A stretch of 64,000 nt of DNA from Amoebophrya sp. A120 (GCA_905178155.1 CAJINV010000008.1:4241420-4305419); one strand, 5' to 3'. Counted from the stretch's first letter, positions 1-41,435 are shown. Made by a program: numbers and translations. The notes: a model not told the origin generated them from the letters alone.

Positions 1-100
1 GTCACTTTCGCGGCGATGTTTGCAAGACATGAAACAGCATTTGCATTTTTGAAACAAAAAGTACGCTTTCCGGCCCCTCCATATTCTCCACGCCTCGCAG

Positions 101-3100
101 CTGCGCGCTGTCGCACGCTTGGCACTGGACAACGAAGGTTTGATCGCGTCCCACCCAGACCAGGCCGTCCAGGCGGTTGAGGCCGGCTTCAAGTCCCTGC
201 CCCATGAGGACCAGGTTGGTATCGTCCAATGGATCGACCGATCCCTGAACCCGCCCACGCACCCGTGGATGTACTGATTTTGTTTTAAACTTCTTTAGCT
301 GCATATGTCAGACAGTTTCTCGCAGGCCATAAGAAGCGAGCAAAGGGCTGATTTTGTTTTAAAACCCTGAACAAACCTCATGATCACGCATTCTCAACCC
401 TGCGTTCCTACCTCCATGTAAATGCACACTTCACATAGTCTTTTGTCGTGCGCTATTCATCAATCCATGTGTGAGAAGCTGCCATCCAGTCTGAATTTTG
501 GCACATAATCACAAACTCAATCAACACAGCTCGACGGAGTCTGGCGCAGTCCTGGGTGCCCACGACATCGGTATCACCTTGATGATAACAGCCACGGCCG
601 CTCTTTGTTGCCTTTGTTTCCAAAAACCGCGAAGATGAGAATTGATACTCAAATGGCGGGAGCAGTGGCGAAGACAGCTGTGCACGATTTGTCATGCACA
701 ATTTGTCATGGCGTAGTTGGATCATCTTGCGGCACAAGACGCACAATGTAGTTTCCCGACTAGTTCACTGTGCATCCATGATGACGATATTGCAAATGCA
801 TATGTAGGCGGTTCCGGTTTCAGCGGTAGCTTCGTCATGACGAAACATGTTTTCGTTTCGCGGTTTCCCAGTCATGGGTTGTAGGAGAGGTCCGTGAAGC
901 TTCTTTCATCCCCATACCTGTCGGCTCAACCTTCTACGAAATGTTGCAAATATACTGTCTACTGGGTCCTCTGTACATTTCTGATGCGCTTGCGTCTGCG
1001 CAACCAAGGTTACAGCGATATGCTTTCGTTAGTATGGCGAGTGCTCGTTTTTGCGCATGACACCGAGATGAAGCAACGCATCCCCACGGCGGCATCCACG
1101 CATCCGAAAGCCCAAAAATCTGGTGATGGGATCGAAAGTTTTCTTGCAGTATCATTGGGTCCACACGAGTTGCAAGGAAAATGAATACGTGAGTACTACT
1201 CTACAAAGAGCACAGACTAGTACCCTACGACGCGACCTATTTGCAATGCATACTCTTTTCATCGCGATGAACATGATGTTGGCCTTCACCGTTTTCTTCC
1301 TGCTCGAGCGAAACGCAGTGCCCGCCCAGTGGAAGCGGTCCGTCACCGTCGCCATGCTTGTCACGGGCGTCGCGTATTGAAATACAATTTAGATAGATGA
1401 GTGCTTCTTGATTCTTCGCCTCGCTTGTTTCACGCAGGCGGCGTTGAGCCTAGTATCCTCCTTGACAGAGTAACAGAACATTTTGAGGCGGAAAAAGAAA
1501 TGCTACGGGGACAAGTTAGTTGCCCTTTTGGCATAGCTGGAAGTAGCGTGGTTTGCAGCGAGTTTCAGTGTCTCCTAAAACTGTGAGGACTGATGATGCG
1601 TGACATGTGCAGCTCTAACTCAACTAAAACAAAACTACAGGTTCTGGAACTACTTCTACATGCGAGGGGCGTGATATGCAGGGAAGCGAGGTGTTTCGGT
1701 TCTGGAAATCGGTCCTTTACAAGTTCGTCTTGTTTGTAAACTGCCATGTACGACAAGATTCTAATGTCATGCGCAATATTGGAAGTTGAACTTGAAGTGG
1801 TTGTTGAGGGAGCGCTCCGGGGGCTCGATGTCTTTCTCTGTGGCTAATGCTTGAAAGAACAGTTTTTTGTATTCTGGGAGCGTCGCGCTTTTGGGCTTGT
1901 TCATGATACGCATGCGACGCGAGGATTTCGATTTTCCCAGTGAGGTATCTTCCATTGAGCCCAACTAGAATCGTGACCGACTCCTTCCCCTGCATACGCT
2001 GGTGAAGACGCAGCAGAGTATCCGCCACGACACAAAAAGATAAAGGATCCGAGTTTTTGCCATGATAAGTAATTTAGTCGTATAAATTATTTTTTCTACT
2101 AAAAAACATGTTGCTGTTCTGGTGAATTCTGGTGATGATGTTCTCTACCTATGTAATGATTCACCAACTAAACAAAAATTCGTGCTCCACGTGCGAACGT
2201 TTTGGCATTTCATACTCCGCCCAACCGTCTACCGGTACACCGATATCGCACACAGAAGGTTGTAGTGCTGTGACGACCACATCTGTGCTCTGCTGTTTTG
2301 CATTAATTCGATTCCGACCACTGAGGTCGTTCTTTTAATGTTGCGTTCGTGGCAGTAAGGACGCCGGAATTGTAGAGTAGAAATAGGGTTTGTCATGCGC
2401 CTTTTAGAGATGAAGAAGAAACAGGAGGTCAGGCACTATTTTTTTGCAGGGTGCAAGAGAAGAAATGAAGAACCAAAACAACGTATGTGTCTGACCACTT
2501 CTTTGAAATTTGTACTGATGCATATGTAAGAGGTTGCAGTAATACGTCTTTTTCTTTTCATACCTCACTGGCTGATCACCGTGCCGCTCCAGATCGTCGA
2601 GTTCTATCTGATCCTGCAGGTACAAGTGTTTTTCGTTTCGATTGATGCTTTCCCAATGCAGAATAATATCATGAATGATCGCTCCCTAGTCGAAATCCAC
2701 ATCTTTTTGACATGAGCAAGTTGCAAACCTAGATTGCGAAACCGCACTGGAATAATACACACGAAACATCCATTTCCTTTTTGAACTACTCGTTGCTCTG
2801 TGGCACCTACAGCTGCAAACAGTCGTCAAATCATGAAAAGCTGTTGACTGAAATGTAAAAGGAAGGAAGTGGAAGACAACATCCTTTAAAAAAAAGCAGT
2901 ACGTACTGAAAAGTATTTTGATTTCACGTCACTTTCAGGCTACGACCAACGTGTCTGTGATGCTGTTCTGGCGCCTCTTGATTGCTTCCATCGTCATGCT
3001 GGTCGGCGGGTTCTGCGGTGAGGTCGGCGCCTGCTCCGTGTTGGTCGGCTTCGTGGTCGGCATGTTGGGCTGGTTGTACATCCTGTTCGAGGTCTTCTGC

Positions 3101-3944
3101 GGGGAGGCGGGCGCGATCGTATCCTGTGCAAAAGTATCGTACTCGTACTAATTGCAAATATGCATGACAAATCTTCTTCTTAAGGTAAAACAGCATTACA
3201 AATTCGATTTCTCTTCTTGCCATAATTTGTAATGCAATTTATGCTAGTGCGATGCTTTTGCAATGCATAGATCGCCGGCAACGCCAACTCCAAGGCCTGC
3301 GCGTCCGCGTTCAACACCCTGTATCCTGAGTGAAAACGTCCCCACACCAGAGTTGTCATGCAGATTTGCCATGACAGGAACAGTTGTGATGCGCAACCCC
3401 ATGACAGGCATTTTCAATCGTGTTTGGGAACTTTCAGCAGATCGATTTGTGATGCGGCTTTCCTTGCTAACTGCACTACCTTACGGACTGAAACTTGTCA
3501 CGCGTGACTCCCAAAAGTTCTAGGCTTGTGCTGCAAAGTCCCCATCTTGACTCTGGTGTGGGGACGTTTTTAATCAGGACGCCCTGCGCTTGATCGTCTC
3601 CGTGGGCTGGGCCATCTACCCGATCGGCTACTACATGGTCTACTTGGGCCCGACCTTCTCCTACCACGCCGACTCCGTCGTCAACATCATCTACAACTTG
3701 GCTGGTAAGTAGTTAGATAGCGCTACAACAACGTTGCAAGGATAGAATCACGTTGTTGTGCCATGCTCTGCTCTACAATTTTTTGTCGCCCCGAGTTGTA
3801 AGGAGGTGTTTCTTGCGTTATGCAGTGATGTGGGTTCCTAATTCTATGCTTTATTCAGTTCTGGATCAAAAAAAAACCAACACAGATTTCGTCAACAAGG
3901 GTGCCTTCGGCCTGTGCATCTGGGCCGCCGCCTATGTAGTGTAA
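101..3944 (+). CDS. Proteorhodopsin paralog 1 (multi-exon; 5' end probably outside the window, last exon uncertain)
   Basis: Exons ~101-270, 530-570, 921-933, 1257-1373, 1641-1673, 2001-2017, 2219-2242, 2567-2619, 2939-3118, 3274-3320, 3586-3704, 3886-~3930 join to ...HDIVGSTFFIAMNMMLAFTVFFLLERNAVPAQWKRSVTVAMLVTGVAFWNYFYMRGAWVKTQQSPTVYRYTDWLITVPLQIVEFYLIL...GWAIYPIGYY...NIIYNLADFVNKGAFGLCIW. Contains the helix C RYxDW motif and the retinal-binding DxxxK motif. Confidence 0.93.
572..916. mobile_element. Old introner in rhodopsin 1
   Basis: TATC...CATA termini; removing 571-920 joins ATC G|TC GGC (DIVG). TIR is weak. Confidence 0.65.
935..1252. mobile_element. Old introner in rhodopsin 1
   Basis: TACG..TTGCAAATA / TATTTGCAATGCATA ends; removing 934-1256 joins TT|T TTC ATC. 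Confidence 0.7.
1675..1996. mobile_element. Introner in rhodopsin 1 (AT...CT intron)
   Basis: TIR TATGCAGGGAAG / CTTCCCCTGCATA; flanks CGTGA/CGCTG; removing 1674-2000 restores the TG|G Trp codon. Confidence 0.85.
2019..2214. mobile_element. Old introner in rhodopsin 1
   Basis: TATC...CATA; removing 2018-2218 gives A|GC CCA ACC (SPT). Confidence 0.7.
2244..2562. mobile_element. Old introner (family E-like) splitting the Asp97 codon
   Basis: TATC...CATA; flanks ACCGA/CCTCA; removing 2243-2566 gives ACC G|AC TGG (TDW). Confidence 0.8.
3120..3269. mobile_element. Introner, 150 bp
   Basis: TATCCTGTGCAAAAG...CTTTTGCAATGCATA; exact TSD GATCG. Confidence 0.85.
3322..3581. mobile_element. Introner family A
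   Basis: ~30-bp TIR TATCCTGAGTGAAAACGTCCCCACACCAGAG; TSD CCCTG; close copy at 51321-51599. Confidence 0.95.
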
Positions 3945-6900
3945 CCCGTGGTCTGGATCTGGAAGCAAAGCGGGCAAAATTTTCACATTGCGTGACAGCT
4001 GTATATAAATCTTGCCGAAAATGACATTGGTGTTGCTGGTCTCTCGCTCACGAGGTTGCGATTGGCAACATTTCTGCTTGGGCCCCTTCAGGGCTCGTCC
4101 GCTACCGTAACATCATGCAACTTCTGTCACGCACAGTGCAGGTTGAAATTGAAACTGCAAGTGATGCCGGGCATCACAGTGCAGGTTGAAATGAAACCGT
4201 AAACCCTAAACCCCTGTCACGCTCATGCATTGATTGCCGGGCAAGGGCAAACCGCTTTTATGATTTGCTGTTGTACATCAATTGTGTCTGTCAGTATCCG
4301 CTTCCTAGAAAAAACCAGACCCGCTCGTCCCACTGCATACGCGGAAGTCGGACGTGAAGAAGGGCCTCCTGGCTTAAGTGCGCTTGCAGCTCAGCGTCAG
4401 AGTTTTAGTACGCACACCGCCATGAACGAATTCACTAAAATGTAGATGTAGAAACAGAGCAACGTGCAATGTCGCTTTTATTTTTACCACGCACGGCGTA
4501 GAAGTATCTACCATATGAAACAAACCATAACACGTGGCAAAAGCGAAGGACTGCGAGCAACGGCACGCGATGCTGCTCATGACAATATCATGCGGCGGAA
4601 AGGAAATTAGGAGTTGGAAAATAAGTAACCACTTGATAGCACATTACTTTCTCAAGTTTCGTTGATGCGAACAGTACATCAATCAGGATAAGACCCTTTT
4701 TACTAGTTGTAGTTGTTTCTCAACTACCATCCAGGCGGAAAACTACGTTCTCTGTACTTTTGGAACGCCAGAACGTAGAAGACCACGCTCTGATCTACTT
4801 ATGAACCAGGGCACATGCAAACGTGGTCACTAGTGAAAGGGACCAGAACGAGTCAGTGATCAATAGTATCCAGCGGAAAAGTCTCCGTCCCGCCACAGAA
4901 GTAGGTCCGTAATCCGCCGTCCGTGCGGCTAGCAGCACTTGTTTGCAAGACGGTAGAAAAGTTCTTCAGCAGTAGGCCAACCAGCTGCGGAAATTTGAAA
5001 GAAGGGCCGCACTTACTAGGGCTTTTGGGGATGGCGACTTTCGCGCTGGATACACATTGGCAACAGCAAGTCAGCACCTATCAGAATCATTTTACCAGTT
5101 TAGAATCAGGAATAGAACCAATAAGTTTTGTGAAGGTTTAGCAATTAGGTTTCAAATTTTTACACTTGCGCACCTGCAAGAAAAACAGAACTGCGCTTGC
5201 GCAAGTCGAAGTTGGGCATCAGTTATTGGAGCCCGCAGGTGCAGGAAATTTCGAAGTACAGAAACACGCCCACACCTGTCGCTTTATCGGCCGACAATTT
5301 TATTACACTGCGCCTCTAGGACTGCATGCAGACGCACTGGAAGCATAAGTTGATGAGACGAACCTGCATCACGCTACACAGTCGGGACGGGAGAAGAGGC
5401 ATGATAGGCAGCGTGTGCGGTATTTTTACCTCTCGAAATTTTCTCGTTAGACAGTATGGGTTGATGATTATCATTAAGCACAACTACAGGATAATTGTAA
5501 GGGATCCTCATTACGTTCAAATCTGGAGGACCATATCCTCATCTCATGTAGAATCACAGTATCATCTATATCGGACCGCATAGCAGAAAAAGAAGGACCC
5601 TGACCCGTTGCTGCGGGAGGTACGCAAAGCACTCATACACCCCCGCCTCTTTCAGACTGGTCTTGGCACTGTAGGGATGAGAATGAATAACAAGTAAACC
5701 TGAAATGTGTGTTGAACCGATCATGCTGAAATTTTTGTACAGAAGAAGTGCTGGTGACTCGCAGCCATCTGTTAAAGCCTGCGCAAAGTTGCAGACAAAT
5801 TTGCACCACAGCAGTCGGGGCAATCATGTTGCCAGCCTCTCATCTTGCATGACGACAATGTAGGCGGGGGTATGTTTGTCAATCATACAGGATACGCCAT
5901 ATGTAGAAAACATTCAGGGATTCTCGAACACTACTATCGAATGCAAATATACCGGGTTTCGCGACAAGATAGCACCTCGTCAGCATGATCTTGTATTGCG
6001 AGAGAAAAGTTCACATTTGCGATATGCCGATGCAAATTTCATCATACCTTTAGTGGTGCTGAAAACACATGATTTTCTTGTCGGGAAATGAGGCATATTT
6101 TCTCCATGCATAATCAGCAACACACTGCAAAAGTTGTAGCCCATTGCGTAGGCTGACGACGGTTGCAGCCGAGAGCTATGCTACAGGTCGCAGATTTGAC
6201 ACATGCGTGAACATGATAAGTTTTCCGAAACAGCAAACGACGGTAAAACACATCAAAAAACACATTTTTTAATACTTATAAAGAGAGCGCAACAAAGCGG
6301 CGTCTCCTGCAAGAAGTTCCATGATTCTTGCATCGCCCGCTCGAGCACGAGGCTCCTTTGTGGTGCTATCGAATAGTGGCGCTGCACGTTCAACCTCGGT
6401 GCTGTGTTGCTCTTTTTGTGTCAAATACTTGCTTGGCCTCATTGCTTTGTGATTGTCGTATACTGCTTACTGTTTGACAGCGTTTGCAATATGTTTTGCA
6501 TGTAAATGAGTGACCGAAGTCAGACGTAGAAGTGGAATTTTCTTTCGCTCTGTCCCTGCCGTCAGCGTGATATCTCCAGTGGCAAAAAATTTGAGCGTAG
6601 CGGGCCTAGTTGTACCTCAGGGCACTACATCTTCGTCGGTCGCAAGCGCAAGAAATTCGGTTCCAGCAGAGCGAATGAATGAGCGACCTTTTTTTTTCAC
6701 GAATGCGTTTGTACGTACAATAGAAATTCACTTTCTCGGTGATGCCTCCTCTGTCAACGTCGGTGCGCGTTTGTTTTTCACCACTAAGCGTCCCCTTATA
6801 TCCTGGTTGTACACCACGAGAGACTGATACCACCTAATTTCAAACAATGTTTTTTGTACTCCCGGCTGGGAATTTTTAAATTGATTTCGTTGTATCATCC

Positions 6901-7454
6901 TGGTGACCAGTGAGGGACAAAATTTTTGTTTATCCGCTTCTCATTCACACCCCCGCCTCGTAAACTCCACCCAGGGCCCAAGGAGAAAACCCGAGAGAGA
7001 CAAGTAGACCCACCTCAGCATCTGTGGAGAGTGCTGTTTAGAAAAAGTAAAGCAACTAGCTTTTGAACAACTCTTGTTGACAATTCCAGTACCGTAGGAA
7101 GAAGAGAGAAAGGCTTGAAGGTCGTAGGTGTAGTATCCACGGCAAAAAACATGTCTGGTTCTGGAAAAGTGCCGCTGTTTGATGTATGCATGAGCACAGA
7201 ATAAACAATGAAATGGTCGGGACCTTTTTTCAGACGCATTGCTGCAGTGAATGCCCAGCAGCGGATTGCTTTGCTTGCAAACGCAATCCACCGTTTGCAT
7301 GACATGATATACCTCTTAAAACAGTTTGGGCGACCACGTGCATTCTCCCCACGGTTTTATCAGTGCACTTTGTGAAGAATTGGCGCTTTCCAGGGTTGTA
7401 CTCCAGACATGTTTGCATTGCATCTGTGGTCTTAGAAACGTTTTTCCAGAGAAG

Positions 7455-10084
7455 ATGGTGATTACGTCCGAGCAGATCGGCGCCGCCGAGGGCGCCTTCG
7501 AGAAGATGCCGCTGTCCGAGAAGATCGATGCCATCAAGGCGCTCGCCCGCGCGGAGCGGTCCGCTGCCGCCAACCCCTACGGCTTCCCGCTGTCCAGCAC
7601 TGGTACTACTTTAAAATAGAAGTGTATGTTTTTTCGACTGCTCAAAGGTAGGGATTATGTTGGTTGTTGCAGGTGGAGATGTTGACAAGTGGTATTGGAA
7701 AGCACCAGATTTCATTTCGAAAGCTGTACACTATTCTGCTGAACATCGAAAGGGAAAAAGAATCGCGGAGCATGATGATCATATGATTGTTTTGCAGAGA
7801 CTTTTTAGAGACAGAAACAGTCATCTGGTACTTCCGCATTGACTTTTCACGACGCTTCTTGAAAGTGCAGATGGAAACGTACCTACACTCAGGTATCCCG
7901 ATCGTCCAGGGCATGAACGACGACAGCGTGTTGGGCTCCCACGACATCGTCGGTGTCACCTTCGTACGCGCTGTGAAAGCTGCCCTCTCTTGGTTCTTTC
8001 TCATCGGTTCTTTAAAGTAACTGTCCCTGTCTGTTGTTTGTAACGAGAAGTTGCGAAATAGTAAGTGCGGACCGGCGCAGTAAGTAAGTAATCATGCTTG
8101 TCGTTGTGGACTGGTACAATAATAAGTTCACGTGCTGTATCACAGAGGGGCTTTTGCAACAAGTGCATATCGGTGGATTGCGTGCGCGTCCATGTTGGCG
8201 GGTTCCGTGTTCTTCTTCTCCGAGCGGGCCACCGTCCCAGAAAAGTGGAAGACCTCCGTCACCGTCGCGGGTCTCGTTACCGGCATTGCCTTCTGGTATG
8301 AAAGTTTAGTTTCTGTAAAAACATGACTCATGAACATGATGCAGATGAACAACAAACCTAGCGAACTTCGATGAGGTCGTGACTTGATTTTTTCAAGAAC
8401 ACCCTGGCACAATCAAGAAGATATGTGGACAAAATAATCAGGAACTACTGCTTCATGCGTGAGTCATGGGTCGAGACCCAGACCTCCCCAACGGTGTACC
8501 GGTACACGGACTGGCTGATCACTGTGCCACTGCAGATCATTGAGTTCTACCTGATCCTGAAGGCCGTCCTGCCCAACATCAGCTCCGCACTGTTCTACCG
8601 CCTCATGGCCGAGTCCGTCCTCATGTTGCTGTGCGGCTGGGCCGGCGAGACTGGAATCGTCTCCGTCCTTTGCGGCTTCATCCCGGGTAATAGCTGGTTT
8701 TAGTTTTTCTGACAAGCAGTAGTTGAGGAACTGAAGAAAATTTCTCTCCCTTGTCGTGCGATGCATCGTCGTATTTATTAGTCTCAGAGTAGAATTGCAG
8801 TTGCATTGCAGTCATGTTTAAAGTAGTAGCCGCATTAGTAGCTTTAGATGGGGAGTACGCAATGAAAGCTACACTTGGATGGGTGCGATGAAAAAAATTG
8901 CAACGACGGCACAAAATCCTCGACATTCACAGGTATGCTGTGCTGGTTCGCCCTCATCTACGAGATGTTCACCGGTGAAGCTGGTCAGTTGGCTGCTGTA
9001 TGAGATGAAACGTCGGCGCGCTCGCACATGGCTACACCACCGAGTGAAATTGTTAGCAGGATAGGATTTTAGTTTGCATTGCAATCATCGACTCGGCGGA
9101 TGTTGGGGGCATGTGAAAAAACCGGGCACATTGGCATTTCTACTCCGCTTGTCAGAAACACGCTGCTCCTTGCGCCGACCGCTTATGCTTGAAGCGGAAG
9201 ATGTAATCTGGTAACTTCTGGCTTTAAATAAACGCATGGTGGTGTCCTGCTATCCATGTGCTCGCGACCTCATTTTCCGCTGCATAGCCTGGCTGCGGGA
9301 ACAAGGCGTGCCTCTCTGCCTTCAACACCATGCGCCTGATCATCACCGTTGGCTGGTATCATCATGTTTCTTTTCCTATGGTGCCAATAGACACGTGTAA
9401 TAACTGGAGAAGACCACATGCTATTGTCTTGTCGACGACACAGAGTTCGTCCTGCACAAACAAATTTGGTATCAAGAAGTACTTGTGAGAAACTTTATAA
9501 TTGAATCAAAACAGGGCCATCTACCCGTTGGGCTACTACCTGACCTTGTTGGGCCCCTTATGAAAGATGACTGGACCCCCCCTCTCTCCAAGATTGATTC
9601 CGAGGGAATCATTGAGCACCGCGTTTATTGAGCTCTGGTTGGGCATGCCGCGGTGCAAAAATCTGCAGAACGCTGCCTTTGAACTAAAGCATTCGAACTA
9701 CCGTTTGATCTTTCTGCATGTGAGCTAAAAGAGATTTCGGGGGAGAGGGCTGCTGTCCACTGGCATATTCCACCGCCACCTACCACGAGCAGTCCGTCAT
9801 CAACATCATCTACAACATCGCGGACTTGGTCAACAAGCTCGCCTTCGGTACTCTAAAGATTCAGTTGCTCTCTGTGCAACAGTGACATTTTCATGCCTTA
9901 CACTTTGACTTTTTGCTTGCGAGTAATAGTATTACGTAGCAGCTCGTTTTCAATCATCAGAAACGTGCGTGGTTGAATTGTTATTACTTTCATACCAATG
10001 TGTTGAAAACAAAATTACAATTCCACGAACCAACTTCCAAAAACAGGCTTGTGCATCTGGGGTGCCGCCATCTCTGACAAGTAA
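7455..10084 (+). CDS. Proteorhodopsin paralog 2 (complete, 9 exons, ~65-aa N-terminal extension)
   Basis: Exons 7455-7602, 7893-7963, 8174-8295, 8442-8686, 8933-8997, 9291-9355, 9515-9557, 9772-9847, 10047-10084 give MVITSEQ...DIVGVTFWIACASMLAGSVFFFSERATVPEKWKTSVTVAGLVTGIAFWNYCFMRESWVETQTSPTVYRYTDWLITVPLQIIEF...NIIYNIADLVNKLAFGLCIWGAAISDK*. Confidence 0.95.
7965..8169. mobile_element. Old introner in rhodopsin 2
   Basis: TACG...GCATA; removing 7964-8173 gives TTC|TGG (conserved FW). Confidence 0.75.
8999..9286. mobile_element. Old introner in rhodopsin 2
   Basis: TATG...CATA; flanks TGCTG/GCCTG; removing 8998-9290 restores the frame. Confidence 0.7.
9559..9767. mobile_element. Old introner in rhodopsin 2
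   Basis: TATG...CATA; removing 9558-9771 gives CCC|ACC (GPT, as in paralog 1). Confidence 0.75.
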
Positions 10085-11738
10085 ATGTCGGATCTGATCG
10101 AGATCGACGCCATGACTCGCCTGCTCCTTCAAAAGTAGATAAAACTGTGGGACGAGCTGCGCGGTAGTAGATTTTGTCAACAACACGGCCACCACCACCT
10201 TGGAGAAGGGACACCGCAGCTCTGAAGAGTTCTCACAGTGACGTGAATTTTAGAGCAGTCATGGAACAAGTCGAGGAAGACTTTGTACAGAGACAAAGAA
10301 ATGCAAAACTTTGTCAGGCACAGATGCAAAACTGCAGTTGTAGAAATATCTATCAAGCTCGTGTAAAAATTGTATAGACAACTCGAATAGTAGACACGAC
10401 GGCACAGGTTGCTATTGATACTCAATAATACAGGTTTCATCATCAGACAACAGAAATCAGGTGGAAGAGAGCAATTCGTACGAGAATTGCATTTTTTATC
10501 AATCAGTGTGAATAGATTGCACATCTATTACGGTACGATACAACGACCAAATACAGTTTCGAGGAAAATGTTGTTTCCTTGATTTTTGTACGGACAAAGG
10601 TATGTGGACATACTAGATAGGCGGATGAAGCGCAAAGGCCGAGAGTCGGAGGATACTATCTAAAACACAGAGTCAACAGAAAAGCTTCCACGGTTGTGAT
10701 GTAGTTTCATCACAAGTCGCTGCCAGTAGCAAAGTATCCAGAAATGCGCTACTCGAACACAGTAGAAGGTCGGCTTTTTGTGACACTATCGAACAAGCAG
10801 AGCGCGCCTAGAGGTTCACATCGGCACACTGCTAGAACAATGTGGTCGGAAATCAGAATATCGAAAAGTTTACTGAAAAATGGGAATCAGACTAAATAGG
10901 TTTTAATAGAATCACATCATGTTTTATGATTAAGTAGAAATTGCCACAGAACCATAATAGACATATCTCTCAATCGGACGCATCTATTCAAAACACGACC
11001 GAATTGCATCTGTCTAGGGCAAAAAATATCGTCTGCAATGCATGTCGCGTCGAACTCTATAACCACTTTGCCGTAGGGCGATGCTGTAAAATTATTTTTC
11101 TGCAGTCGCAACCAGCCCGTTCGCGCGAAAGTAGGCGAAGTCACCAGAAGCAACTCCTTGTACGTATTGCAAGCGTTGTGGCAGTCAGACAGAAGGTGTG
11201 GTTTTTGATGTTGTGCAGGAAGCAATTTTCTGTGAACAGCAGAGATGAACATGAATAACTTTTTGAAAATAAGACATTGTCGGAATCCAGCTTTCCCACG
11301 GCAAGCTTCATCGAAGCAGGCCTGAAAGCTGTGAGCAGTAAAATCAGTTTTTACAGAATGAGAATCACACGAAATAAAAACAAAAATTTGCAATGCAGTA
11401 AGCAGGCATTGTATGGCCACCACAGTGCAAGTACCTTACCAGGGCTTTGTTCTAGTACACACCAGGCTCGCAGTCTTTCGAGATGACCACGTATGTTGTC
11501 CACCCGTTGACTGTACAATTGTGAGGATGGAGAGAAGATGGAGATGGGACGAGGAAGTTCTTTCATTGAAATGAAAAATGAAAACAAAGACGCGTGCTAC
11601 TGGCTAAGTCATCCACCTATTATTTTCATGATTATGCGCGCGAGTCTGATGCAATGCAACCCCAAACCGATTGTGACAAGTACAGACAGTCCAATTCAGC
11701 GTTGAAGCAAGTGAGTCGGTTCATACCTGTATGCGAAA

Positions 11739-12158
11739 ATGGCCTTCGCGATTATCAAGAAGCTGCTGCTTGCTATCGCTGCTTTCGCAGCGGGCGCGGT
11801 GCATGCGCTTATCCCGCCTCCGCCCCCCGGGGTGGAGACTGAGTTTGCGGACGAGGCAGGAGCGCAGGAGACCATGGTGGGAAGTGATGGACGCGTGGTG
11901 TCGGCGATTCAAATGAAACTGGGGCCTTACGGGTGCTCTTGCAAAGGTACCTCCTGGACGCACCCGTGCCGGTGGAACAGGCCAGACGTGCTGGAACAAG
12001 CCGCGTTTGCCAAGGCCGGCGAAATCGATCCGCCGTGCGAAGGGCCGGGGGGGGCTGTTTGGCGCCGGGGTAAAACAGTTTCCTGGCGTCGGGGGATGCG
12101 CGGCATGGTGTGGAGAACAAAAACTGGCGAATTGGGGGATCAGCGAAACGGCGTATGA
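11739..12158 (+). CDS. Small putative secreted protein (139 aa)
   Basis: GC-rich ORF with a signal-peptide-like start (MAFAIIKKLLLAIAAFAAGAVHA), acidic segment, 4 Cys and an Arg/Trp-rich C-terminus. No family recognised. Confidence 0.6.
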   Translation: MAFAIIKKLLLAIAAFAAGAVHALIPPPPPGVETEFADEAGAQETMVGSDGRVVSAIQMKLGPYGCSCKGTSWTHPCRWNRPDVLEQAAFAKAGEIDPPCEGPGGAVWRRGKTVSWRRGMRGMVWRTKTGELGDQRNGV

Positions 12159-13786
12159 CATCGTGAATTACAACTAGCGTGCTGATGTGATGCGTTTGCT
12201 TCTAGTGAGATACGAAAATAAAAAATCTTCAGAGATGATTCGCGCTCTTCTTTTCTTTTGGTGTTTCATTTTACGTTCGAAGTATAAGCACCGAAAGTCA
12301 GAACTAAAAAGCGAGAGGCTGCAGTGGACAAAATACAACTTGATAGCTTGGCCATGTGTAAAAATATCTTCGCTGGTTCGGTGAGAGTATCAGAACTACC
12401 ACAAAGCTCGAGCATCTGCCTTCCAAGAAGGCTAGCTGTAGATGCTGAACGTCGAGTATCCAAGCTCTCGAAAAACCGTGACAAGCACGGAAAATATGAA
12501 GGAGCTCGCTGTGTATGATGGATGAAACTCAAATGTGTTGAGACGCTTTTTTTCGTTACTGGTGAACCTGATACAGTAGTCAGTAACCATTTCTGATGTG
12601 GAATTCGAATCTGCACGGAGTGGCCACTAGATTGTGGCTCCGTCCTCGAGGTTATAATTTATCATTTGTTCATCTTTTTTTTCAAACTCGAGCCCAAACC
12701 TCCGCACGCCCCCCCCCCCCTAGTGCAGGATAAATGATGGTGGTGATTTTGATCACCGTGATCAGCAATTATCTCAGTTCAGGTTATCGTGTAGAGAAGC
12801 AACATGTAGTGAAAGTTCAAGTTACCGATTTTTTTCGGTTGCATCGATAGATTGCACATTGGAGTCTTGTTGCGGATCTGGATGGGCACATGAATTGTAA
12901 TTGTAATTCGCAGATCCTCAGCGACAAAGCTAGCATTCGAAATCAATGCCAGCATTGTTTCTAAAATTTATTAGTAAACCGTGGAAGTTTTTTGAGTTAG
13001 AGATTGAATTTGCCACATCTTGTTGCTTCTTTGTAGTGTGCCATTCAAATAATTTTGGATAGCAGAATGGGTTGTGTGAAAAGTTCCCAATTTTCTACCA
13101 CACGCGCCGTGAAGTGTAGTTGCATGATGACGTCCTTCAGCAACTACACGATAATGGATTGATTGATTGATGATTTTCAGATGTGGGTCAATCTTTCCTT
13201 TTCAGGTCTTTCCCTTCCGAGTGGCATGTTTCTTAGATTATGCCCGCCATCGCCATTTGCCTTTCGCCAGAACTCATGGTTTGGCTTAGCACGACCCCGG
13301 TGGGGTTGTTTCACGCCGAGTATTGACTCGTCGTTATGTTCTTCCTGCGCCGACCTCTGCCGAAGCAAGTGGCTGAGTGATTGGGTTGTGCCACCGCGTA
13401 TTTGACGATCGAACGGGAGATTGCCGCGACAATGAAGCGACAAGACCGCTTCGTATACGTGTCCCTTCCCGTTTATGGAAGTGTCATGATCGAAATCGTC
13501 AAAGTTGAAATAAGTAGTTTGTCATGCATACAATGCAACGCAAGAATTGCCTCTATATTGCAGAGGACGCAAGGCAGGGAGACTGTAGTGGTGGTAAGGG
13601 TCGAGAATCGGGCTGCTGATTAGCATCACAGAGGGGAACCCCTTTGCTCTAGACCGCATGACAAACTGGCTTCCGGTACGGACAAAATTCGCCACGCATC
13701 GACTAGAAAATGTGCGCCCCATTGGTATCGATTTTATGCATTGCGACGCATTTCAACTTTGTCGATTTCGATCCTGACGCTTCCAT

Positions 13787-16700: not shown

Positions 16701-19700
16701 TGGAGTAGATGCTTCTTCGCCTCTTGTGGATCAACATGCGGAGAATGAAAGAACCCGCCGAGAGACCTTCTTCGAGAGCAGCCATGATCAGGCAACAAAT
16801 CCTGGGAAAGAAAATCATTTCCCGTGCGAGAACATCAACAATAGCGAGGGTAGCATGCTGGTCAACAACGCCAAAAACGATGCCCAGACTCAGATCGCGC
16901 TGCACTCCGGCCTGTTGCTGCTGGGGCCCATGATCATGGAGCGGCACTTCCACACGCCGACAATGGAGGCCGTTTTCTGGCAGCGGCATTGGCTGAACAC
17001 GCGCCGAAAGCGGGGCATCTGCTTGGAAGAATCACGGGATCTTCCGGATCGGTCAGGAGATGGCGAAACTCCCGTTCAAAATGCGCCACAACTAGTGCAG
17101 GTCGACGAAAATAGACCAGAGGCGGCCGACGATAAAGAGTGTTCGCCCCCGGACGGTGGCACTGACGCGGCAGATACGGGCGCGGCAGACGAGAACCGCC
17201 AGAACAGTAGTTGTAGGAAGAGGCTAATCATGGAGCAGCAACACTTTCTCCGTCTGTTCAAGCTGTATCTGGCGGAGCAAACGGCGATGGCCACAAAGGA
17301 CGCCTGCAGCTGCTTCTCCAAACGGGCCAGCTGCAGCGCATGGATCACGTTTTTCCTGCAACGCTTTGCTGCTTTTCATGCGGATGAATTGTTCACCTCT
17401 CGAACTGGTTCTGGCGCGACTGTGAGCGACAGTGTCGGAGCTGACTCAGACTCGGACCGCAGTCCATCCCCACCTTCGCTCACGACTTGTGTCTATTACC
17501 TCGAGGAGCTGAAGGTCCTGATGAGTACTAGGAGCGGCCCGCCCGCCGGCTCCCCTGTTGCCACGGAGCAACTCCAGCACCAAAGAGAGGTGGAGGGCAC
17601 GACGACATCACAGGGCCAGGAGCCTGCGGTTGAAAGAAATAAAATCGCGCAGGAAGACGAAGTGGAAGAGCGGCGCGGGGCAATAAAAATGCTAAAGTTA
17701 TCAGCCACTTCCGAAGACAACAACTCGGCCTCCGAAGATCATCTTTCGCGACCACGACTTGGTGACACCGGTGACCACGGTAGCTCGGCTCGGTTGCCGT
17801 CTTCAGAGGTACCAGTCCGCCCTAACGTGGTGGAGAGAAGTACAACTAGCAGCAGTTCCTGCGGGGGCCCGAAGTGTGGTAGTACATTGAACCCGCCGCA
17901 GCCGCCGTTCTTATTTCTCATCGCGGGAGACCGCGCGCGCGACCGGGAGCTGGACCAATTGGATTTTCTCTTTTGTTCAGGGTCAACATCATCTACGGAC
18001 GAACAAAAGAAGCGCACTGGCGAAGAAGAAAATGAGTCTGAAAATGAAATAAATCATGATAAGAGACCGGCTCGCTCTTGTCGTGTCTGGCTTGACACGA
18101 ACGTGGAATACGAACTAAAGGCCATCGTCACCGCCCGGGCAGCGTACTTGCGACTCCCGAAAGCTTCCAGCGGAGAGGAGCGAGAACCTCCAGCGGGGAT
18201 GAGCAATGACACACCACCACCATCAAAGGACGACAGCGGCGGCGAAAAACTGGTCTGGCACTGCTTCACAAATGTGTTCCCGGAGGCGATCCCTCTGGCC
18301 GATTCGTTTGACCCGCGGCAACTCGCCGCCACGGCGGAATTCTACTTTTTCGTACGGACGACGTCGAACTTGGGAACGAATGCAGCTCCTACAGGTACTA
18401 GCGCAAGAACGGGCACTAGCAGTCCAGCTCCGAGCACTACGAAACGACCAGCGCCGGCAGCTGTGGCGGGGGACCTTCGTGGCGCCTCGGACAGTGGTCC
18501 TTGTGTTCTTGAGAACAAAGAGGTCGCCGAGCGACAAGGGTGTGAGCGGGCAGCGACAGGTGCAGCTGCTGCCAAGGGAATTGCGTGTCAAGACGGCGGT
18601 GAAGAAGTCAAGGCAGCCAATTTCCCCGGCAGAGGGTCGTCGTCCTTCAACTTCAGAGCAGCCTGGCGAGAAAACTACTACGCAAGAACCGCCTCCTGGC
18701 TATTCTCCCAAGCAGGACGGATTATGCACACGACGCCCAGCGGGCCTGCAGGAAGTTTGTCACCCCGCGACGAGCAGGACCAGTTGACGCAAGGTCCAAA
18801 ACCTGCCTGTGTTTCCGGGCCGGAAGATGGCGAACCGGAGCAGTTGCAGCTCCAGCGTCGGCGAGTTGGAGGTCTGGCGACGCCTTTGTCCGATTTTGAA
18901 CAAGATTACTTGGATGACGCGTTCTGCGGCCTTCGCGCCTTTACTCTCCACCACGGCAGCACTACCAGGCACGGCCCCGCCTGCAAGCGGCTGTTTATCG
19001 AAAGGAAAAATCCCCCCTCCCCATATCGAAAACGAAATTTGTGATGCTGTATTTGAGGTCACAAATCGACTTGTCATGCTAGAAGGCCAAGAGCCGCAGT
19101 CGTGGCCTCGTTTGCAGGCAATTTGTCATGCTGTTTCCCGCTCTCAGCTGCCTGCTATCATGCTGAAGATGCAAGGCTTGACCACGGCACCCAGCACTTC
19201 CCGTGTAGCATGACAAAGCTGATTTGTGACAACAAATCTGCATCACAGATTTCCGTTCTGATATGGGGAGGGGGGATTTTTCCTTTTGATACTGTTCGCG
19301 CGCCCACGACTGTGCCCGATCAGCCAACCGGAGAATTTCGTCCGGCAGAACCAGCCGGGGCTGGGCACGACAGGCGAGGTGGACCTCCGGTATGTGTTGC
19401 GCCCGGAGCTGCACGAGGAGGTGGAAGCCTTTCGAATCAAGTACCCGCTCTACAAGCGTAGTCCCGCGTGTCTGGAGCTTTGCGTATTGGTGGAGCACGA
19501 GCAAGATGTTGAAATTGTGCCGGAACCTGTACACGACGGACGCGATCATGGTGCGCTGCGAGGCCAGCCGGACTACGCGCAAGTGAAAGCGCACGGCACC
19601 ATCGAAAAGATCGTGTATTTCCCCGCGGACAAGCGGGTCGCGGACCTGGTCAAGTTTCTCCAGAAGCGAAATTTGATGGCGCCGCCCGCCGTGGAAGCCG

Positions 19701-21711: not shown

Positions 21712-22133
21712 TGGAGCTTGTAGTTCTTCAACAAACATGTTGCACACCTTGTTTGATGTCTACGAATACAGTGTGTGTTTGACTCACGACTTCTCTCCCG
21801 CAAGAATTTATTCGGGCAAAACAAGTTGTCGCTAATCATAACGTTGTTCCGACGCAATAGGATCGAAGTCAAATATTGTATACAATGCAAAGGTAGCATT
21901 CGACCTCCAGCGTGTGGAAGCCAGGAAGCCGGGTGAGGAGCCAAGGTTTTTCCCCGAGAACGTGTGCATGGTGCCATCCCTTGTCTGCCGCGTCGAGCCG
22001 TTACACCGGTTTTTCTATTTTATTTTTTTTGAAATCGTGTAGTCTTGCGTGTTTTTCAGCAAAGACACTCAATTAGCATACCATCGTGGTCCAATGCGAA
22101 TCACGATGGTATGCTTGCGACGAACGAAAAGAG

Positions 22134-26900: not shown

Positions 26901-29900
26901 AGTGGGTGGGGAGAAATTTGTTTTGCCAACGACCGGAACGACCCAGGGTGTGCTGCAGCAAACCCGGACTTTCGAGATCACCTCGTTGCACACCTGGAAC
27001 TTACTCTTTCAGGCCCCGCAGGTCGCGCAGCGTGGTTGGGAAGGAAAAGGAGGGAAGAAGAATGCGACGAATAATAAATGCAGCAACGGAGGAGCTATCC
27101 CTCGAAAGAACTATTTCACTGTGATGAATGTTGCAAGATCTGCGTCACAAGTCTGTTACATATGACACAGAATATTTGCCATGCGCGCTTCCCAAGGGAA
27201 ATAAGCACGCCGGCAAATCCAATGCTTTGCAGATGTAGTAAAGACAGGATACACTTTGGCGCTCCTTTTTCTCCATCACAAGTTCAGAGTGAAACTGCAG
27301 TTTTTTCTTGCGATAGGAGCAGCAGCTACGTCTTCAAGCACGTCGATCGGTGGTGTGCAGTCCCTGCAGCATCCACCAAAGACGACCAAGAAGTTTCAAA
27401 AGTATCTTCGAGACTATAAGCTGGAATTGAATTCCAGTTCCTGCCCGGCTCTCTCCTCCTCATGTGGTGCTTTCGCAAGAAAAAATGCAGCAATCGCGAT
27501 GAACTGCGGTGGAGCTGCAAAGCGGGATAAAAAGGAAGGCACGAAGATGAAAAAGGGGCCTGCGAACAGTGTGAAAACGGTTTTCAGCCAGAGCCAGGCG
27601 GGCGTGACTGCGTCCACCGTGCTTTCGGAAGCAGAAGGAGAGACCTCCTCGCAGGGGGCCCACCTCCCCGCGGAACGAACCGAGGGTAAAAATGAGCTGA
27701 CTCTCACGATCACCGGCAGCGAGACGGACCTGCGACAATTTGAGCAGAACGTCCTGCAAAACGAGTGCAGATTCGAAACGTTTCGGCTCCGAGGCGGCCA
27801 TCAAAGCGTTCCTCTCTCCCCGAGAAGTAGATCCTCCGAGTTTACAAGCACTCTAAAAATATCAAAATGAAAATAAATTCCTCCCGCTCCTTGCCACATA
27901 ACGAAATCAGTGACGCCGAATTTTCTGCAGCGTATAAAAATCATCTTTATTGTCTTGCAGCCGGGAATCGCAGGTTGCACGCTGGTATCAATCATGGGGA
28001 TTCTTGCGTACGATGTGTGTTATTTCGCATGGCGGGCGGCTGCCATCATGAAAGTCTAACATCAATCAGCCGCGCAATGTATGCGACGGACATCTCTGGC
28101 ATCGCCTTCTTCTTGCAAGACAGAGGCGAAGATTTGTGGTCCCGGATGGGCAGCGCAGATTTCCGCTTCGGGTATGGGGAGGGGGAAATTTTCCCGACCA
28201 TGCACTCCACCTCACGACCAGCAACCGGAGCAAGACCACGAGGGACCAGGAAACAAGCAGAGCGAGCTGCGTCTACAACCCGGTGATGAAGATCCTGATA
28301 CGAGTAGCAACATTGCGGAATATCAAAAAGGAAAAGCCACCCCTTCCCACACAAAAAACAAAGCCTCTGACGCTACGGATGGGATCTGTATTGCTGGATG
28401 GAACTGCAGCCAGATGCTCGGCCTTACCGGGCATAGTGCACCCCTTGGATCCTGCACCCTCCCGGGCACGGTAGCGCAGTTTGTTAAGCATGACAAATCG
28501 CCTCCATAATACGACGCATACATACCCCTGCGCTTGCCTTCTTGCAAGGCAGAAGCGATGCGTGGTTACTTACAAATCTGCGTCGCGAGTTTTCCTGTCA
28601 GGTATGGGATTGGGATTTTTTCTCACAATATGCAAGTCGGGTTTTTTATGTTCCTCTCCGACTCGAAGGCGGACGCGGAAGGTGCCTTGAATACCATATT
28701 GAGGCAGGTTATCAAATGCACGTATGTCTGGGTCTGGAGGGAGAGTGCAAGATTTGCCATGCATCGCACGGACCACGCACATGGTCTGGAATGCTCACAG
28801 ATGAAGAAGCGTCGCAGATCTATTTGCTGGATCGTCCTCATGCCTATCACCACGCGTGAGATTAGTAATCCGCCTGTTTTTGCCCAGCATGAACTGAGCA
28901 ACATTTGGCGTTCATCCAACACAGCTTTTTGTGATGGAGACCTCGCATGATTGACAAGCTGCATCCTTCCAGATCCAGACATATTTGCAGCCGCCATACT
29001 GGTCGCACAAGAAAATCGATCTTGTACTGGCGGCGAACAAGATCAGGATGCACTATTAAGCAAGATGCGCCAGCAGGACGACGTCGATAAAGTAGATAGC
29101 ACTGCAACAGAAAAAGTAGAACGCCCGACGTTAACCAAGAAGTCGTGTGAAGGCCCAGTGCGACATATCCTGTGTAAAAAGTTCCCCACCGCAGAGCTGT
29201 CATGCAAGTCTGCATGCTCGGGATATTTCCTATGCGACTCTCCATGATGAGAGGTATTATCCAGTGCCGTTTGGGAATCTACTATCATGCGATAATCAAG
29301 ATGATAGCGTGGATTTGCGGTGCGTCTGGACTAGCTAGGCTAGACTACTGTTCTACGTCCACATAGCCAAACCTGTCACGCATAAATTCCAAAAATTCTG
29401 GACCCGCCTCACAAAGGTCCCCACTTACCTCTGCAGCGAGGGCATTATTCTTGTTGAGGATAAAACAAGCCGCGACTTCTACTAAGAGCGCGGTCTCCCA
29501 CTTCCAGATTCGGCTTCTGGCCGACCAGAAGGAAATCCTGCTGAGAGGCAGTCGCGAATGCTGCGCAACAGCAACGGATCTGCTTGAGAGGTGCTTTCGC
29601 GAAAACAAGAAAGAGGTGCTGGCGCGCGGAGCCGCTTTTTTTGCAGGGGAGGCTCGGACCCGGGACGCGAAAAAGTTGTCCGAAGAGGTGCGCAAACGTT
29701 CCACGCTCAACGCTAACGCCCCCGCGTTCTATCCCTCCTCCTCGTCGGGACCACGAACTAGTGCAGCTAGAAGCGGTAGTTGCCATCTGTTCCTCCAAAA
29801 TGGTATGATTCAGGATCATTGCAACCACGCGCACCAGCAGGTGGTACCAGAACAGCTCGCGCCGCAGCTCGTAGACGCTCCACGGGAACAGCAGCATGAG

Positions 29901-32900: not shown

Positions 32901-34586
32901 TTTGGATATAAAAAATTTTCAATTATCAAGCTGGCGGGGCTTTGCCATCAAACAAGCCCGAGCCAATTCTATCGATTCCCGCTTGATAAAACGACGCAGG
33001 GGAGCCGGCAAAAGGGGCGCCCTTCTGAGGCGCCCACCGCCTTGGTTTCTGGCGGTTTTGGGCGCCCAAAAAGGAGCGCCCAAAAAGCAGCAGCCCGAAA
33101 AGAACAGCGAATCCGCATGGTATGGGCCTCATTTTGGCCCACATTCGGGCCCCGCAAGAGACGCCACCAAAATCCGCCATTTCAGAGGCGGGCTAAAGGC
33201 CAGAAGATGCGGCATTTTAACAAAAAAACAAAAAAAAACCAAAGTCCGCCAAAAGCAAAAAGCCAGCCTGCATGTTATGGGCCCGATTTGTGGCTCCCAA
33301 GGGGCCGACCCTGGCGGGGGCCCTGGCAGGTCCATAGCATGCGGGAAAGGTTTTTCGATTCGAAAACAAATGAAGGCCAGCTCTGGATCGAGATTTTTAG
33401 CGACCGCCGTGCCGTTGTGCATAACATTACTCACGATGGCATGCTGGGCAGAGAAGTCGCGTCTTTTTTTGGCGTGAAGACAAAAAAACAGCCATGACCT
33501 CACTGCCCCCGCTGCGGCGGCTATTATTGGTCGTGGCATCAATATAATGCTCGCACTCCTGTTCTCTTCGGTCCTGCGACAGACCGTTTTGATTCGTCAG
33601 GCTCCTTCGAGACGGCTGGCACAAGTACTGCGCTTGGCGGCAGATTTGATGTGTTGTATCGTAAGGAAAAATCCCCCCTCCCCATATCGGAAACGAAAGA
33701 CGCGCGAATTTGTAATGCTGTATTTGAAGTACACAAATCAACTTGTATTGCTAGAAGGCCAAGAGACGAAGCTGCGGCCTAAATTGCAGGTAATCTGTCA
33801 TGCTGTTTCCCACTTACAGTTGCCTCCTGTCATCCTGGAGCTGCAAGGCTTTCCCCCGCTAGACAGCACTACAGTCCGCATCTTTTGCCTTCTAGCATCA
33901 CAAAGCTGATTTGTGACCACAAATCTGCATCACAGATTTCCGTTTTGATATGGGGAGGGGGCATTTTTCATTGTAATATGTTGCCGTGTGCGGCCATAAA
34001 CTTCGCTGAAACGCTGGACCCGCACGAAACCAACCTGGTCGCCGCGCATCAAGTGGCGACGTCTAGTGGTTGCCATGTCCACCTCGCCCAACACCGGTGG
34101 AGAGTGACGCTGCGGCCGTTGGCGGGCGACAATCGAGCCTTCAATGCGGTCACGCACGGTCTGCTTTCCATCTACCCGATTTTGCAGAATCTAGAGGACG
34201 GCCTTCGGTACGAGGAGAGGTGCTTCAAAAACGGATTGCTATACCAGCAGCACGGCGGGGGAAGTAGAAGTAGTGCGAGGAGTCGAGAGGTGAATAATAG
34301 ACGGAAGACGAAAGGAGCGGCCGCAGCGGCTAAAGCAGGAGTAGTTGCCCTGCAGCACCAGCAGGTGGGCACTGACTATTGTAAACCGTCTTTTTCGTTT
34401 CAATCGAATGAAAACGACTACGACCCTCTTCGGTTATCCGAGCACTGCACCAGTAGAACCTCCGTGATTTCCTTCTCATTTGATGAGAATAAGCTGCACA
34501 AACACAAACATACGAGAAAAACGCCCTCTGGTAGATGTACGAATGGTCATGCATCAAGTAGAACGCAGTTGAAAAGAAAATTATAA
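23977..34586 (+). CDS. Large hypothetical low-complexity protein (multi-exon, introner-rich)
   Basis: ORFs 23890-27165, 27256-27870, 28951-29247, 29451-30218, 31224-32225 and 33885-34586. In-frame joins checked across the elements at 27096, 28710, 29166 and 33657. May be more than one gene. Confidence 0.6.
27096..27315. mobile_element. Introner family D
   Basis: TATCCCTCGAAAGAACTATTTCAC...TTTTTTCTTGCGATA; TSD GGAGC; inverted relative at 60986. Confidence 0.9.
27860..28200. mobile_element. Degenerate family B introner
   Basis: Left end TATCAAAATGAAAAT, right end TATGGGGAGGGGGAAATTTT. Right boundary approximate. Confidence 0.6.
28710..28998. mobile_element. Introner family C
   Basis: TATCAAATGCACGTATGTCTGGGTCTGG...CCAGATCCAGACATATTTGC..CATA; flanks CAGGT/CTGGT. 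Confidence 0.85.
29166..29462. mobile_element. Introner family A (diverged)
   Basis: TATCCTGTGTAAAAAGTTCCCCAC...GAGGATA; flanks CGACA/AAACA. Confidence 0.8.
30106..30400. mobile_element. Introner family A (diverged)
   Basis: TATTCTGTGTGGAAACGCCCCCAC...ACTCAGGATA; TSD decayed. Confidence 0.65.
32813..33505. mobile_element. Putative non-autonomous TIR element distinct from the introner families
   Basis: TAGTGAGGTCACG / CATGACCTCACTG inverted ends; interior rich in GGCCC/AAAA runs; no clear TSD. Confidence 0.5.
33657..33978. mobile_element. Introner family B
   Basis: TSD TGTTG; reverse complement of the copies at 57268 and 62706. Confidence 0.95.
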
Positions 34587-41100: not shown

Positions 41101-41435
41101 CCTTGCCACCCCTTCTTCCTCCCACGTGACGTTGTTTTCGAATGGAAAAATTAGGAGAAGGGAACAAAATCTATTTCACGACATTACATGATACTCACTT
41201 ATGTGCATGTTGTGAAATGAAAGAGACCTTTCTTGTAAACGATGCGAAAACCTTCGCGAATTTTACGCTTCAACCAAAACTTGATTTACCGAATGTAACA
41301 CCCTCGTCCACCACAACAAGCTAGTCGTGTGCTGGATCATCATGAAATGATAAATGCGGCCAATCAATAGTACTTTCGAGACCCACCTGCCCGGATGACG
41401 ACGTTGACCGAGAAGATAGTAGACGAGATTGGTCG

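Follow-up and report, generated by a model that had tools for sequence, protein, structure and literature searches.

A fixed 1+4 splice register for the non-canonical introner introns of Amoebophrya sp. A120

[quoted passage not shown] Such introns make up 65% of 66,565 RNA-supported introns in A120 (Farhat 2021, PMC7789003). In the portions of that paper available to us, their mode of removal was posed as an open question, their splice sites were called variable with no clear splicing signature, and the legend of Fig. S23 had the inverted repeats lying 1-5 nt away. The locus lies at the start of a 64,000-nt stretch of A120 DNA (GCA_905178155.1 CAJINV010000008.1:4241420-4305419), called the window here. 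An initial annotation of the window, made from sequence alone, had proposed that elements such as the one at 1674-2000 are cut 1 nt before the left terminal inverted repeat (TIR) and 4 nt after the right one (1+4), independent of boundary sequence and measured from the base of an RNA stem. Comparison with transcripts, proteins and related elements indicated that the register is real, and that its anchor differs from the one proposed.

The first 10 kb of the window contain two microbial rhodopsin genes in tandem, with close homologues in strain A25 and other strains (Table 1). Both genes aligned exon by exon with A120 proteins (P0048 for gene 1 and P0001 for gene 2), and one exon of gene 2 was 100% identical to P0001. 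All nine canonical introns of the two genes (271-10046) had (A/T)CAG acceptors, mostly behind an A/C-rich stretch without a pyrimidine tract. The other introns are accounted for by introners already published for A120 (Farhat 2021, PMC7789003), which prove here to be small transposons with TIRs and a target site duplication (TSD) of 5 bp. They lie in genes for A120 proteins, form RNA-supported introns outside the GT-AG class, and match the published description of an 8-20 nt inverted repeat starting with TAT (16 nt at 1674-2000) and a direct repeat of 3-5 nt (5 bp here).

Table 1. Features of the window, with the kind of evidence for each
Feature	Position	Strand	Evidence or remark
Microbial rhodopsin gene (host gene 1; PF01036), codons 11-311	89..4377	+	First exon beyond window; spliced translation equals A120 protein P0048 from residue 11
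Canonical introns of gene 1 (four)	271-529, 1374-1640, 2620-2938, 3705-3885	+	
Introner intron, GT..TG; 1+4 or 2+3 possible	571..920	+	cDNA loose end in X3
Introner intron, CT..CT; 1+4 or 2+3 possible	934..1256	+	cDNA loose ends in X3
Introner intron, 327 nt, AT..CT	1674..2000	+	X3 and X9 cDNA joint, just one cut possible
Left TSD copy, CGTGA	1670..1674	+	First four positions exonic, the fifth being intron +1
Left TIR, begins TAT (intron +2)	1675..1690	+	Inverted-repeat search; terminal stem in fold
Right TIR, finishes ATA (intron -5)	1981..1996	+	Inverted-repeat search; fold
Right TSD copy, CGCTG	1997..2001	+	Positions 1-4 intronic; position 5 exonic
Introner intron, GT..CC; 1+4 or 0+5 possible	2018..2218	+	cDNA joint
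Introner intron, AT..TC; 1+4 or 0+5 possible	2243..2566	+	cDNA joint in X3
Young introner, perfect TSD GATCG, any register equivalent	3119..3273	+	Protein map to P0048; family match
Young introner, perfect TSD CCCTG, right TIR end TA changed to CG	3321..3585	+	Protein map to P0048; family match
Introner intron, CT..CG; 1+4 sole fit	3932..4343	+	X9 record 8 and X3 record 4 pieces begin at 4344
Introner intron, 3' UTR (past gene 1 stop codon)	4866..5056	+	cDNA joint in X3 and X9
Introner intron, gene 1 3' UTR	5620..5891	+	cDNA joint in X3
Introner intron, gene 1 3' UTR	5934..6116	+	cDNA joint in X3
Introner intron, 5' UTR (before gene 2 ATG); 3' TA decayed to TC	7133..7428	+	cDNA joint in X3
Host gene 2, microbial rhodopsin, 290 aa	7455..10084	+	Spliced translation identical to A120 protein P0001
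Canonical introns of gene 2 (five)	7603-7892, 8296-8441, 8687-8932, 9356-9514, 9848-10046	+	
Introner intron, GT..GG; 1+4 sole fit	7964..8173	+	cDNA joint in X3
Introner intron, GT..CT; four equivalent cuts	8998..9290	+	cDNA joint in X3 and X9
Introner intron, TT..CC; equivalent cuts at three places	9558..9771	+	cDNA joint in X3 and X9
Young introner, TSD CTGTT perfect; excision unites long ORF	18995..19295	+	TSD/ORF scan
Young introner, perfect TSD GGAGC	27095..27319	+	TSD/ORF scan
Young introner, perfect TSD TGTTG	33656..33982	+	TSD/ORF scan

The element at 1674-2000 is informative about the cut; its two TSD copies have diverged, with 2 of 5 bases still shared, and lie outside a 16-nt terminal inverted repeat (1675-1690/1981-1996) that begins with TAT. 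The flanks CGTGA and CGCTG and their coding consequence were borne out by translation: keeping the whole left copy (0+5) produces a stop, and 1+4 produces Trp139 of gene 1. Transcript contigs in X3 and X9, each a run of a different study, connect 1673 to 2001-2017 and then to 2219. The initial annotation had named cDNA at elements with diverged TSDs as the check, and the junctions at 1674-2000 and 7964-8173 each had one possible cut, at 1+4. The stability of the whole-intron fold (1660-2015) was not unusual (z -0.83). X3 also contains an unspliced record over 1644-2596 at a depth of 52.7, alongside spliced forms at 1890, which may be pre-mRNA, retention or DNA.

Four public runs were compared with positions 1-14,800 of the window. 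Spliced joints came from X3, which is RNA by guess, and from X9, which is on record as RNA and belongs to a different study; the raw reads of the other two runs (X12 and X13) gave scattered, diverged exon matches with no usable junction and were omitted. The joints listed (15 of 34) showed the removal of 10 non-canonical and 6 canonical introns, and loose ends or record pieces added three more, 571-920, 934-1256 and 3932-4343; for 3932-4343 the left boundary was deduced from record length and P0048. All equivalent cuts were enumerated for each junction, since direct repeats let cuts slide. The 1+4 register was admitted by all 13 cDNA-supported non-canonical junctions, which come from assembled contigs of the two rhodopsin genes, and at three of them (1674, 3932 and 7964) it was the sole admissible cut. 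The alternatives were each ruled out by several junctions: 0+5 by 9, 2+3 by 6, 3+2 by 11, and both 4+1 and 5+0 by all 13. Under uniform choice over six registers the probability of this result is about 2e-7. When offsets were left unconstrained in a matrix of 11 junctions, TA stood at both +2 and -6 in 10, the next best cell held 6 and most cells 0; the exception was 7133-7428, where the closing TA has decayed to TC. Because four of the 13 junctions are in UTRs, coding constraint does not account for the register. All six junctions in the initial annotation, and their boundary dinucleotides, were correct on recomputation. Apart from the two with one possible cut, the remaining four (571, 2018, 2243 and 9558) each have 2-3 equivalent cuts and singly are just compatible with 1+4, although jointly they leave 1+4 alone; at 2243-2566 the codon restored (G/AC, the slash marking the joint) is presumably Asp97. 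Seven cDNA-supported introns beyond that list also fit 1+4 (934, 3932, 4866, 5620, 5934, 7133 and 8998).

Proteins gave the same answer. Both P0048 and P0001 were reproduced with zero differences under 1+4 alone, other registers introducing 2-8 and 1-3 changes, respectively, and orthologues of another strain were also nearest to the 1+4 translation. The A120 proteins are not fully independent of the transcript contigs, as they were probably derived from RNA of the same organism. Homology extended the rule to two more genes. At one locus (L026), 17 elements lie within one gene; its homologue in A120 (P0121) is continuous, with the elements falling at the breaks between aligned blocks. Six TSD-mismatch elements were available at this locus and at another (L021), of which two are synonymous and one is outside reliable alignment. 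Among the three at L026, one rules out 0+5, one rules out 2+3 and beyond, and one is synonymous; one of the three at L021 rules out 0+5. The fixed geometry without need for GT or AG stood, with 13 of 13 junctions compatible and two proteins restored exactly. As a splicing rule for an intron class already known, it is both real and precise, and is based on 13 cDNA junctions in two genes and homology in two more. Three introners lie in the long 3' UTR of gene 1 (4378-6116) and one in the 5' UTR of gene 2 (7133-7428), all of them cut at 1+4.

The sum of the two offsets matches the duplication made by the elements. Ten perfect 5-bp TSDs were found among 77 TAT..ATA pairs of the window, compared to 0.1 in shuffles, and there were none of 4 or 6-10 bp among those pairs. 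A family motif with 14 matches in the window and 0 by chance retrieved 137 loci of one assembly. The window and 129 non-redundant loci, 614,598 bases in all, were scanned for elements whose TSD copies agree at 4 or more of 5 positions. This yielded 456 unique elements with strong TIRs, and in 356 the TSD was perfect; shuffled sequence gave 1 in 181 kb. When TA was not required, 107 of 123 inverted-repeat pairs having a perfect 5-bp direct repeat still started with TAT. Elements were about 150-420 nt in size. TSD sequence was random (302 distinct 5-mers among the 356) and insertion phases were even (146/140/170). As 1+4 adds up to the length of the TSD, excision leaves the target exactly as it was before insertion, whatever the site, phase or orientation, which accounts for tolerance of the invasion.

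Strand could be called for 187 of the 456 elements from an ORF of at least 450 nt across the joint; these are young copies identified by ORF evidence. Their ends are free at +1 and in the last four bases. G was present at +1 in 64, an AG end in 19, and 59 boundary combinations occurred; a GT/GC-AG intron was readable in 11 of the 187 over all registers, and GT-AG under 1+4 in 2. G at +1 and C at -4 showed no sign of selection (64 and 65 of 187), and the base after the intron had no purine bias (G61 C47 T41 A38). The ends were symmetric, with TATC-CATA in 24 and TATG-GATA in 23 of the 187, and the orientation bias hinted by the old introns of the window was gone in these copies. Eight of nine families occur in both orientations to transcription, the minor orientation accounting for 60 of 166 copies, which agrees with a symmetric, hairpin-type signal. 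Within the roughly 0.6 Mb of sequence compared, blastn matched 2 of the 15 rhodopsin-gene introns to the 187 young elements, and 1674-2000 had no match among them; folding indicated that the terminal inverted repeats have decayed in several old copies. An internal GTCATG/CATGAC motif, possibly a transposase-binding repeat, was present in 346 of the 456 young elements, 8 of the 15 rhodopsin-gene introners and 2 of the 9 canonical introns. G at +10 and C at -13 were also conserved, in 149 and 145 of the 187.

The two cuts were fixed relative to TA. Every joint tested (17 of 17, canonical introns among them) had TA at intron +2,+3, and the canonical donors of both genes start with GTA in 9 of 9, as do two donors at L021. 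Independence from boundary sequence held in that neither GT nor AG is needed, but the boundaries are not sequence-free. Since N-U-A equals the canonical G-U-A donor register, the "1" of 1+4 sets the TAY of the TIR in the donor register of the host. The proposal that the cut is measured from the stem base, set by the junction of single and double strand regardless of sequence, fared less well. Young copies do fold at the register, with a median pair probability of 0.86-0.98 in the 60 of 187 sampled and long TIR stems from +2:-5, and canonical introns had a predicted stem at this register in 0 of 9, as a stem ruler would have it. At 3 of the 13 junctions (571, 2018 and 4866), however, the stem is predicted to reach outward by 2, 3 and 1 pairs, with P of 0.99 or more, and the cDNA cut does not shift away from TA. 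Young copies whose target permits outward extension are not depleted (44 of 187, compared to 49.6 expected), and folding (predicted, no probing) found the register stem in 8 of the 15 rhodopsin-gene introns and not in 7, six of which keep other predicted pairing between the end regions. With TA at +2,+3 in every joint as well, a pure stem ruler is improbable, and the comparison with predicted folds indicates that the terminal UA motifs, and not the physical base of the stem, anchor the cut.

The reading favored here, at a probability of roughly 0.5, is that an altered, hairpin-assisted spliceosome removes introners at 5'-N-TAY…RTA-NNNN-3', the leading N being +1. The 5' cut would use the ordinary donor register of the host, the TAY of the TIR substituting for +2 to +4 of GTAY, and the 3' cut would be counted four bases beyond the closing UA. 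A hairpin formed by the TIRs would unite the two ends, replacing U1, U2AF and branch-site scanning; it is a natural way to do so, because young copies are symmetric and both orientations occur. In old copies, as the stem decays, the short end motifs would likely be sufficient. The A120 spliceosome is reported as nearly complete, with 83 of 89 proteins and with U2, U4, U5 and U6 found; U1 snRNA was undetected in the published data available to us and is present in Amoebophrya sp. Kv, a relative with canonical introns. The A120 gene list has two SF1 and three Brr2 entries (PMC7789003 Table S6), which are leads to a specialised spliceosome, and the altered U2-type spliceosome described for Fritillaria is a precedent (PMC13326754). 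For snRNA genes, a short-motif scan of the window and loci gave chance matches alone, and Rfam gave 0 matches on window positions 1-46000. Against a spliceosome, coincidence of TA with donor +2,+3 would have about a 1-in-6 chance under any other mechanism, a classical branch site is not evident, and young copies lack a strand-specific signal, having symmetric ends and both orientations. Standard second-step docking also conflicts with G at +1 in just 64 of 187 and AG in 19 of 187 young copies. In addition, the analogous introns of Euglena were described as released as full-length circles, not lariats (PMC11282704).

A possible though doubtful alternative is a second, non-spliceosomal mRNA splicing pathway in A120, in which the UA/UA-closed hairpin end alone fixes both cuts: a dedicated endonuclease would read it and cut 1 nt before and 4 nt after, and an RNA ligase would rejoin the exons. 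Fully symmetric signals that work in both orientations, the absence of any need for G at +1 or AG, the folding of young copies at the register and the Euglena circles are all consistent with such a pathway, but it leaves the identity of the 5' register with the canonical donor register as a coincidence, and 7 of 15 introns that are spliced have no predicted stem at the register. Folds showed no conserved exon-intron pairing such as bulge-helix-bulge, nor consistent pairing across the junction; exon-intron pairing of that kind is not to be had from a direct-repeat TSD of random sequence. No enzyme stood out as a candidate, the Tpt1 gene at L021 being unspecific. That locus contains, at 5966-6370 on the minus strand, an exon of the gene for Tpt1/KptA RNA 2'-phosphotransferase, a tRNA-type ligation enzyme, and the gene is full of introners.

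A variant of the spliceosomal reading, in which the closing ATA supplies the branch adenosine (its A at -7) and this A is the point from which the 3' cut is counted, is unlikely. It would fit the A present at -7 in all 15 rhodopsin-gene introns and in 183 of 187 young copies, the C at -8 (13 of 15 compared to 53 of 187), and the fixed branch positions known in Entamoeba, diplomonads and parabasalids (bioRxiv 2022.06.08.495308). Old rhodopsin-gene introns also have a 3' TGCATA in 7 of 15, compared to 14 of 187 young copies (p 2e-4), with the mirror 5' TATGCA in 1 of 15. This bias could be a branch-site-like signal recognised post hoc, a drift toward TGCATAC that could pair with U2 with the A bulged. 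However, the paired 3' versus 5' test gave p=0.05, the bulge would be two positions off the usual one, and older families may simply have carried such ends. The mismatched-TSD classes showed no age gradient of 3' CATA (20 versus 18 of 39 with 4/5 matches, and 6 versus 8 of 33 with 3/5 or less, the latter class noisy at 11 hits per 248 kb of shuffles). The U2 pairing hexamer used here is a general one, and A120's own U2 may differ. That the joints are not splicing at all is scarcely credible. A hairpin with direct repeats is a known substrate for template switching by reverse transcriptase, element-free alleles or retrocopies could imitate splicing, and X3 is RNA by guess and includes the unspliced record. 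Yet joints with zero or one shared base (1674, 3932 and 7964) agree on a single register in two studies, joined depth far exceeds unspliced depth (1890 versus 52.7), frame-shifting lengths are removed with conserved proteins restored exactly, and the same contigs also skip canonical introns; the artefact was rejected on these grounds. The altered spliceosome remains the preferred reading.

The elements are known, and the rule N1-TAY…RTA-N4 is apparently new: a fixed register for Amoebophrya was not stated in the literature searched, which included few subscription journals, and Farhat figures 3, S14 and S19-S25 may show a 1+4 peak or snRNA sequences. The published introners share with those described here the organism, inverted repeats starting with TAT, direct repeats of 3-5 nt, a proposed hairpin and MITE-like families; unambiguous junctions now give one register, tied to the 5-bp TSD and the donor register, in contrast to the available account (PMC7789003). 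In Farhat Table S4 the nine top A120 non-canonical ends all have T at +2, and the nine top A25 ends all start with TT, the A25 inverted repeat beginning with TTA (PMC7789003). If the A25 repeat starts at +1 (an inferred offset of 0), two strains would have different offsets and a shared U-A at +2,+3. U2-type introns differ from A120 introners in their GT/GC…AG ends (absent here in all but 11 of 187 in any register) and share the U+2, A+3 donor register (17 of 17).

Similar systems are known elsewhere. The Euglena code 5'-N3CDG…CH'GN5-6/R (Nomura et al. 2025, PMC12501133; the slash marks the cut), as described in the parts available to us, also has fixed spacers to a paired trinucleotide with inner pairing, and was likewise revealed by discarding slidable introns. 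The A120 code differs in its spacers of 1 and 4, its TAY/RTA motif, the lack of a requirement for a purine after the intron, a spacer sum equal to the TSD of still-active elements, and its occurrence in an alveolate, an unrelated lineage. Membership of the euglenid nonconventional introns was rejected, as the N3-CDG…CHG-N5-6 motif and purine bias are missing; the introners work alike without belonging to that class. Introns of Fritillaria borealis are also TIR/TSD-derived, outside GT-AG and attributed to an altered U2-type spliceosome, but prefer AG-AC and AG-AT ends (PMC13326754; PMC11282704), whereas +1 and the last four bases are free in A120. IS3EU DNA transposons have the same TAY…RTA termini, and membership was rejected on the TSD, which is reported as 6 bp in IS3EU (PMC12730594) and is 5 bp only in the A120 elements.

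A single register makes the removal of introns published as variable testable, tells which bases to mutate, fixes where lariat or circle junctions should be sought, and would allow correction of annotation. Together with Euglena, it suggests that hairpin-based, fixed-spacer splicing codes arose more than once. If the non-spliceosomal pathway were true, any TAY-ended transposon would be a perfect intron anywhere and in either orientation, one rule would serve tens of thousands of introns, and a Euglena-type code would have had an independent origin in an alveolate.

Three other features of the window were observed. The right TIR of the element at 3321-3585 ends in CG rather than TA, although the annotated protein requires its removal, which provides a natural test of the 3' motif. 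An AACG/CGTT-rich repeat array at 22100-23700 has many inverted pairs and is unrelated to introners. At 41346-46253 there is an uninterrupted frame of 1635 codons with a reverse transcriptase domain (RVT_1), likely a retrotransposon.
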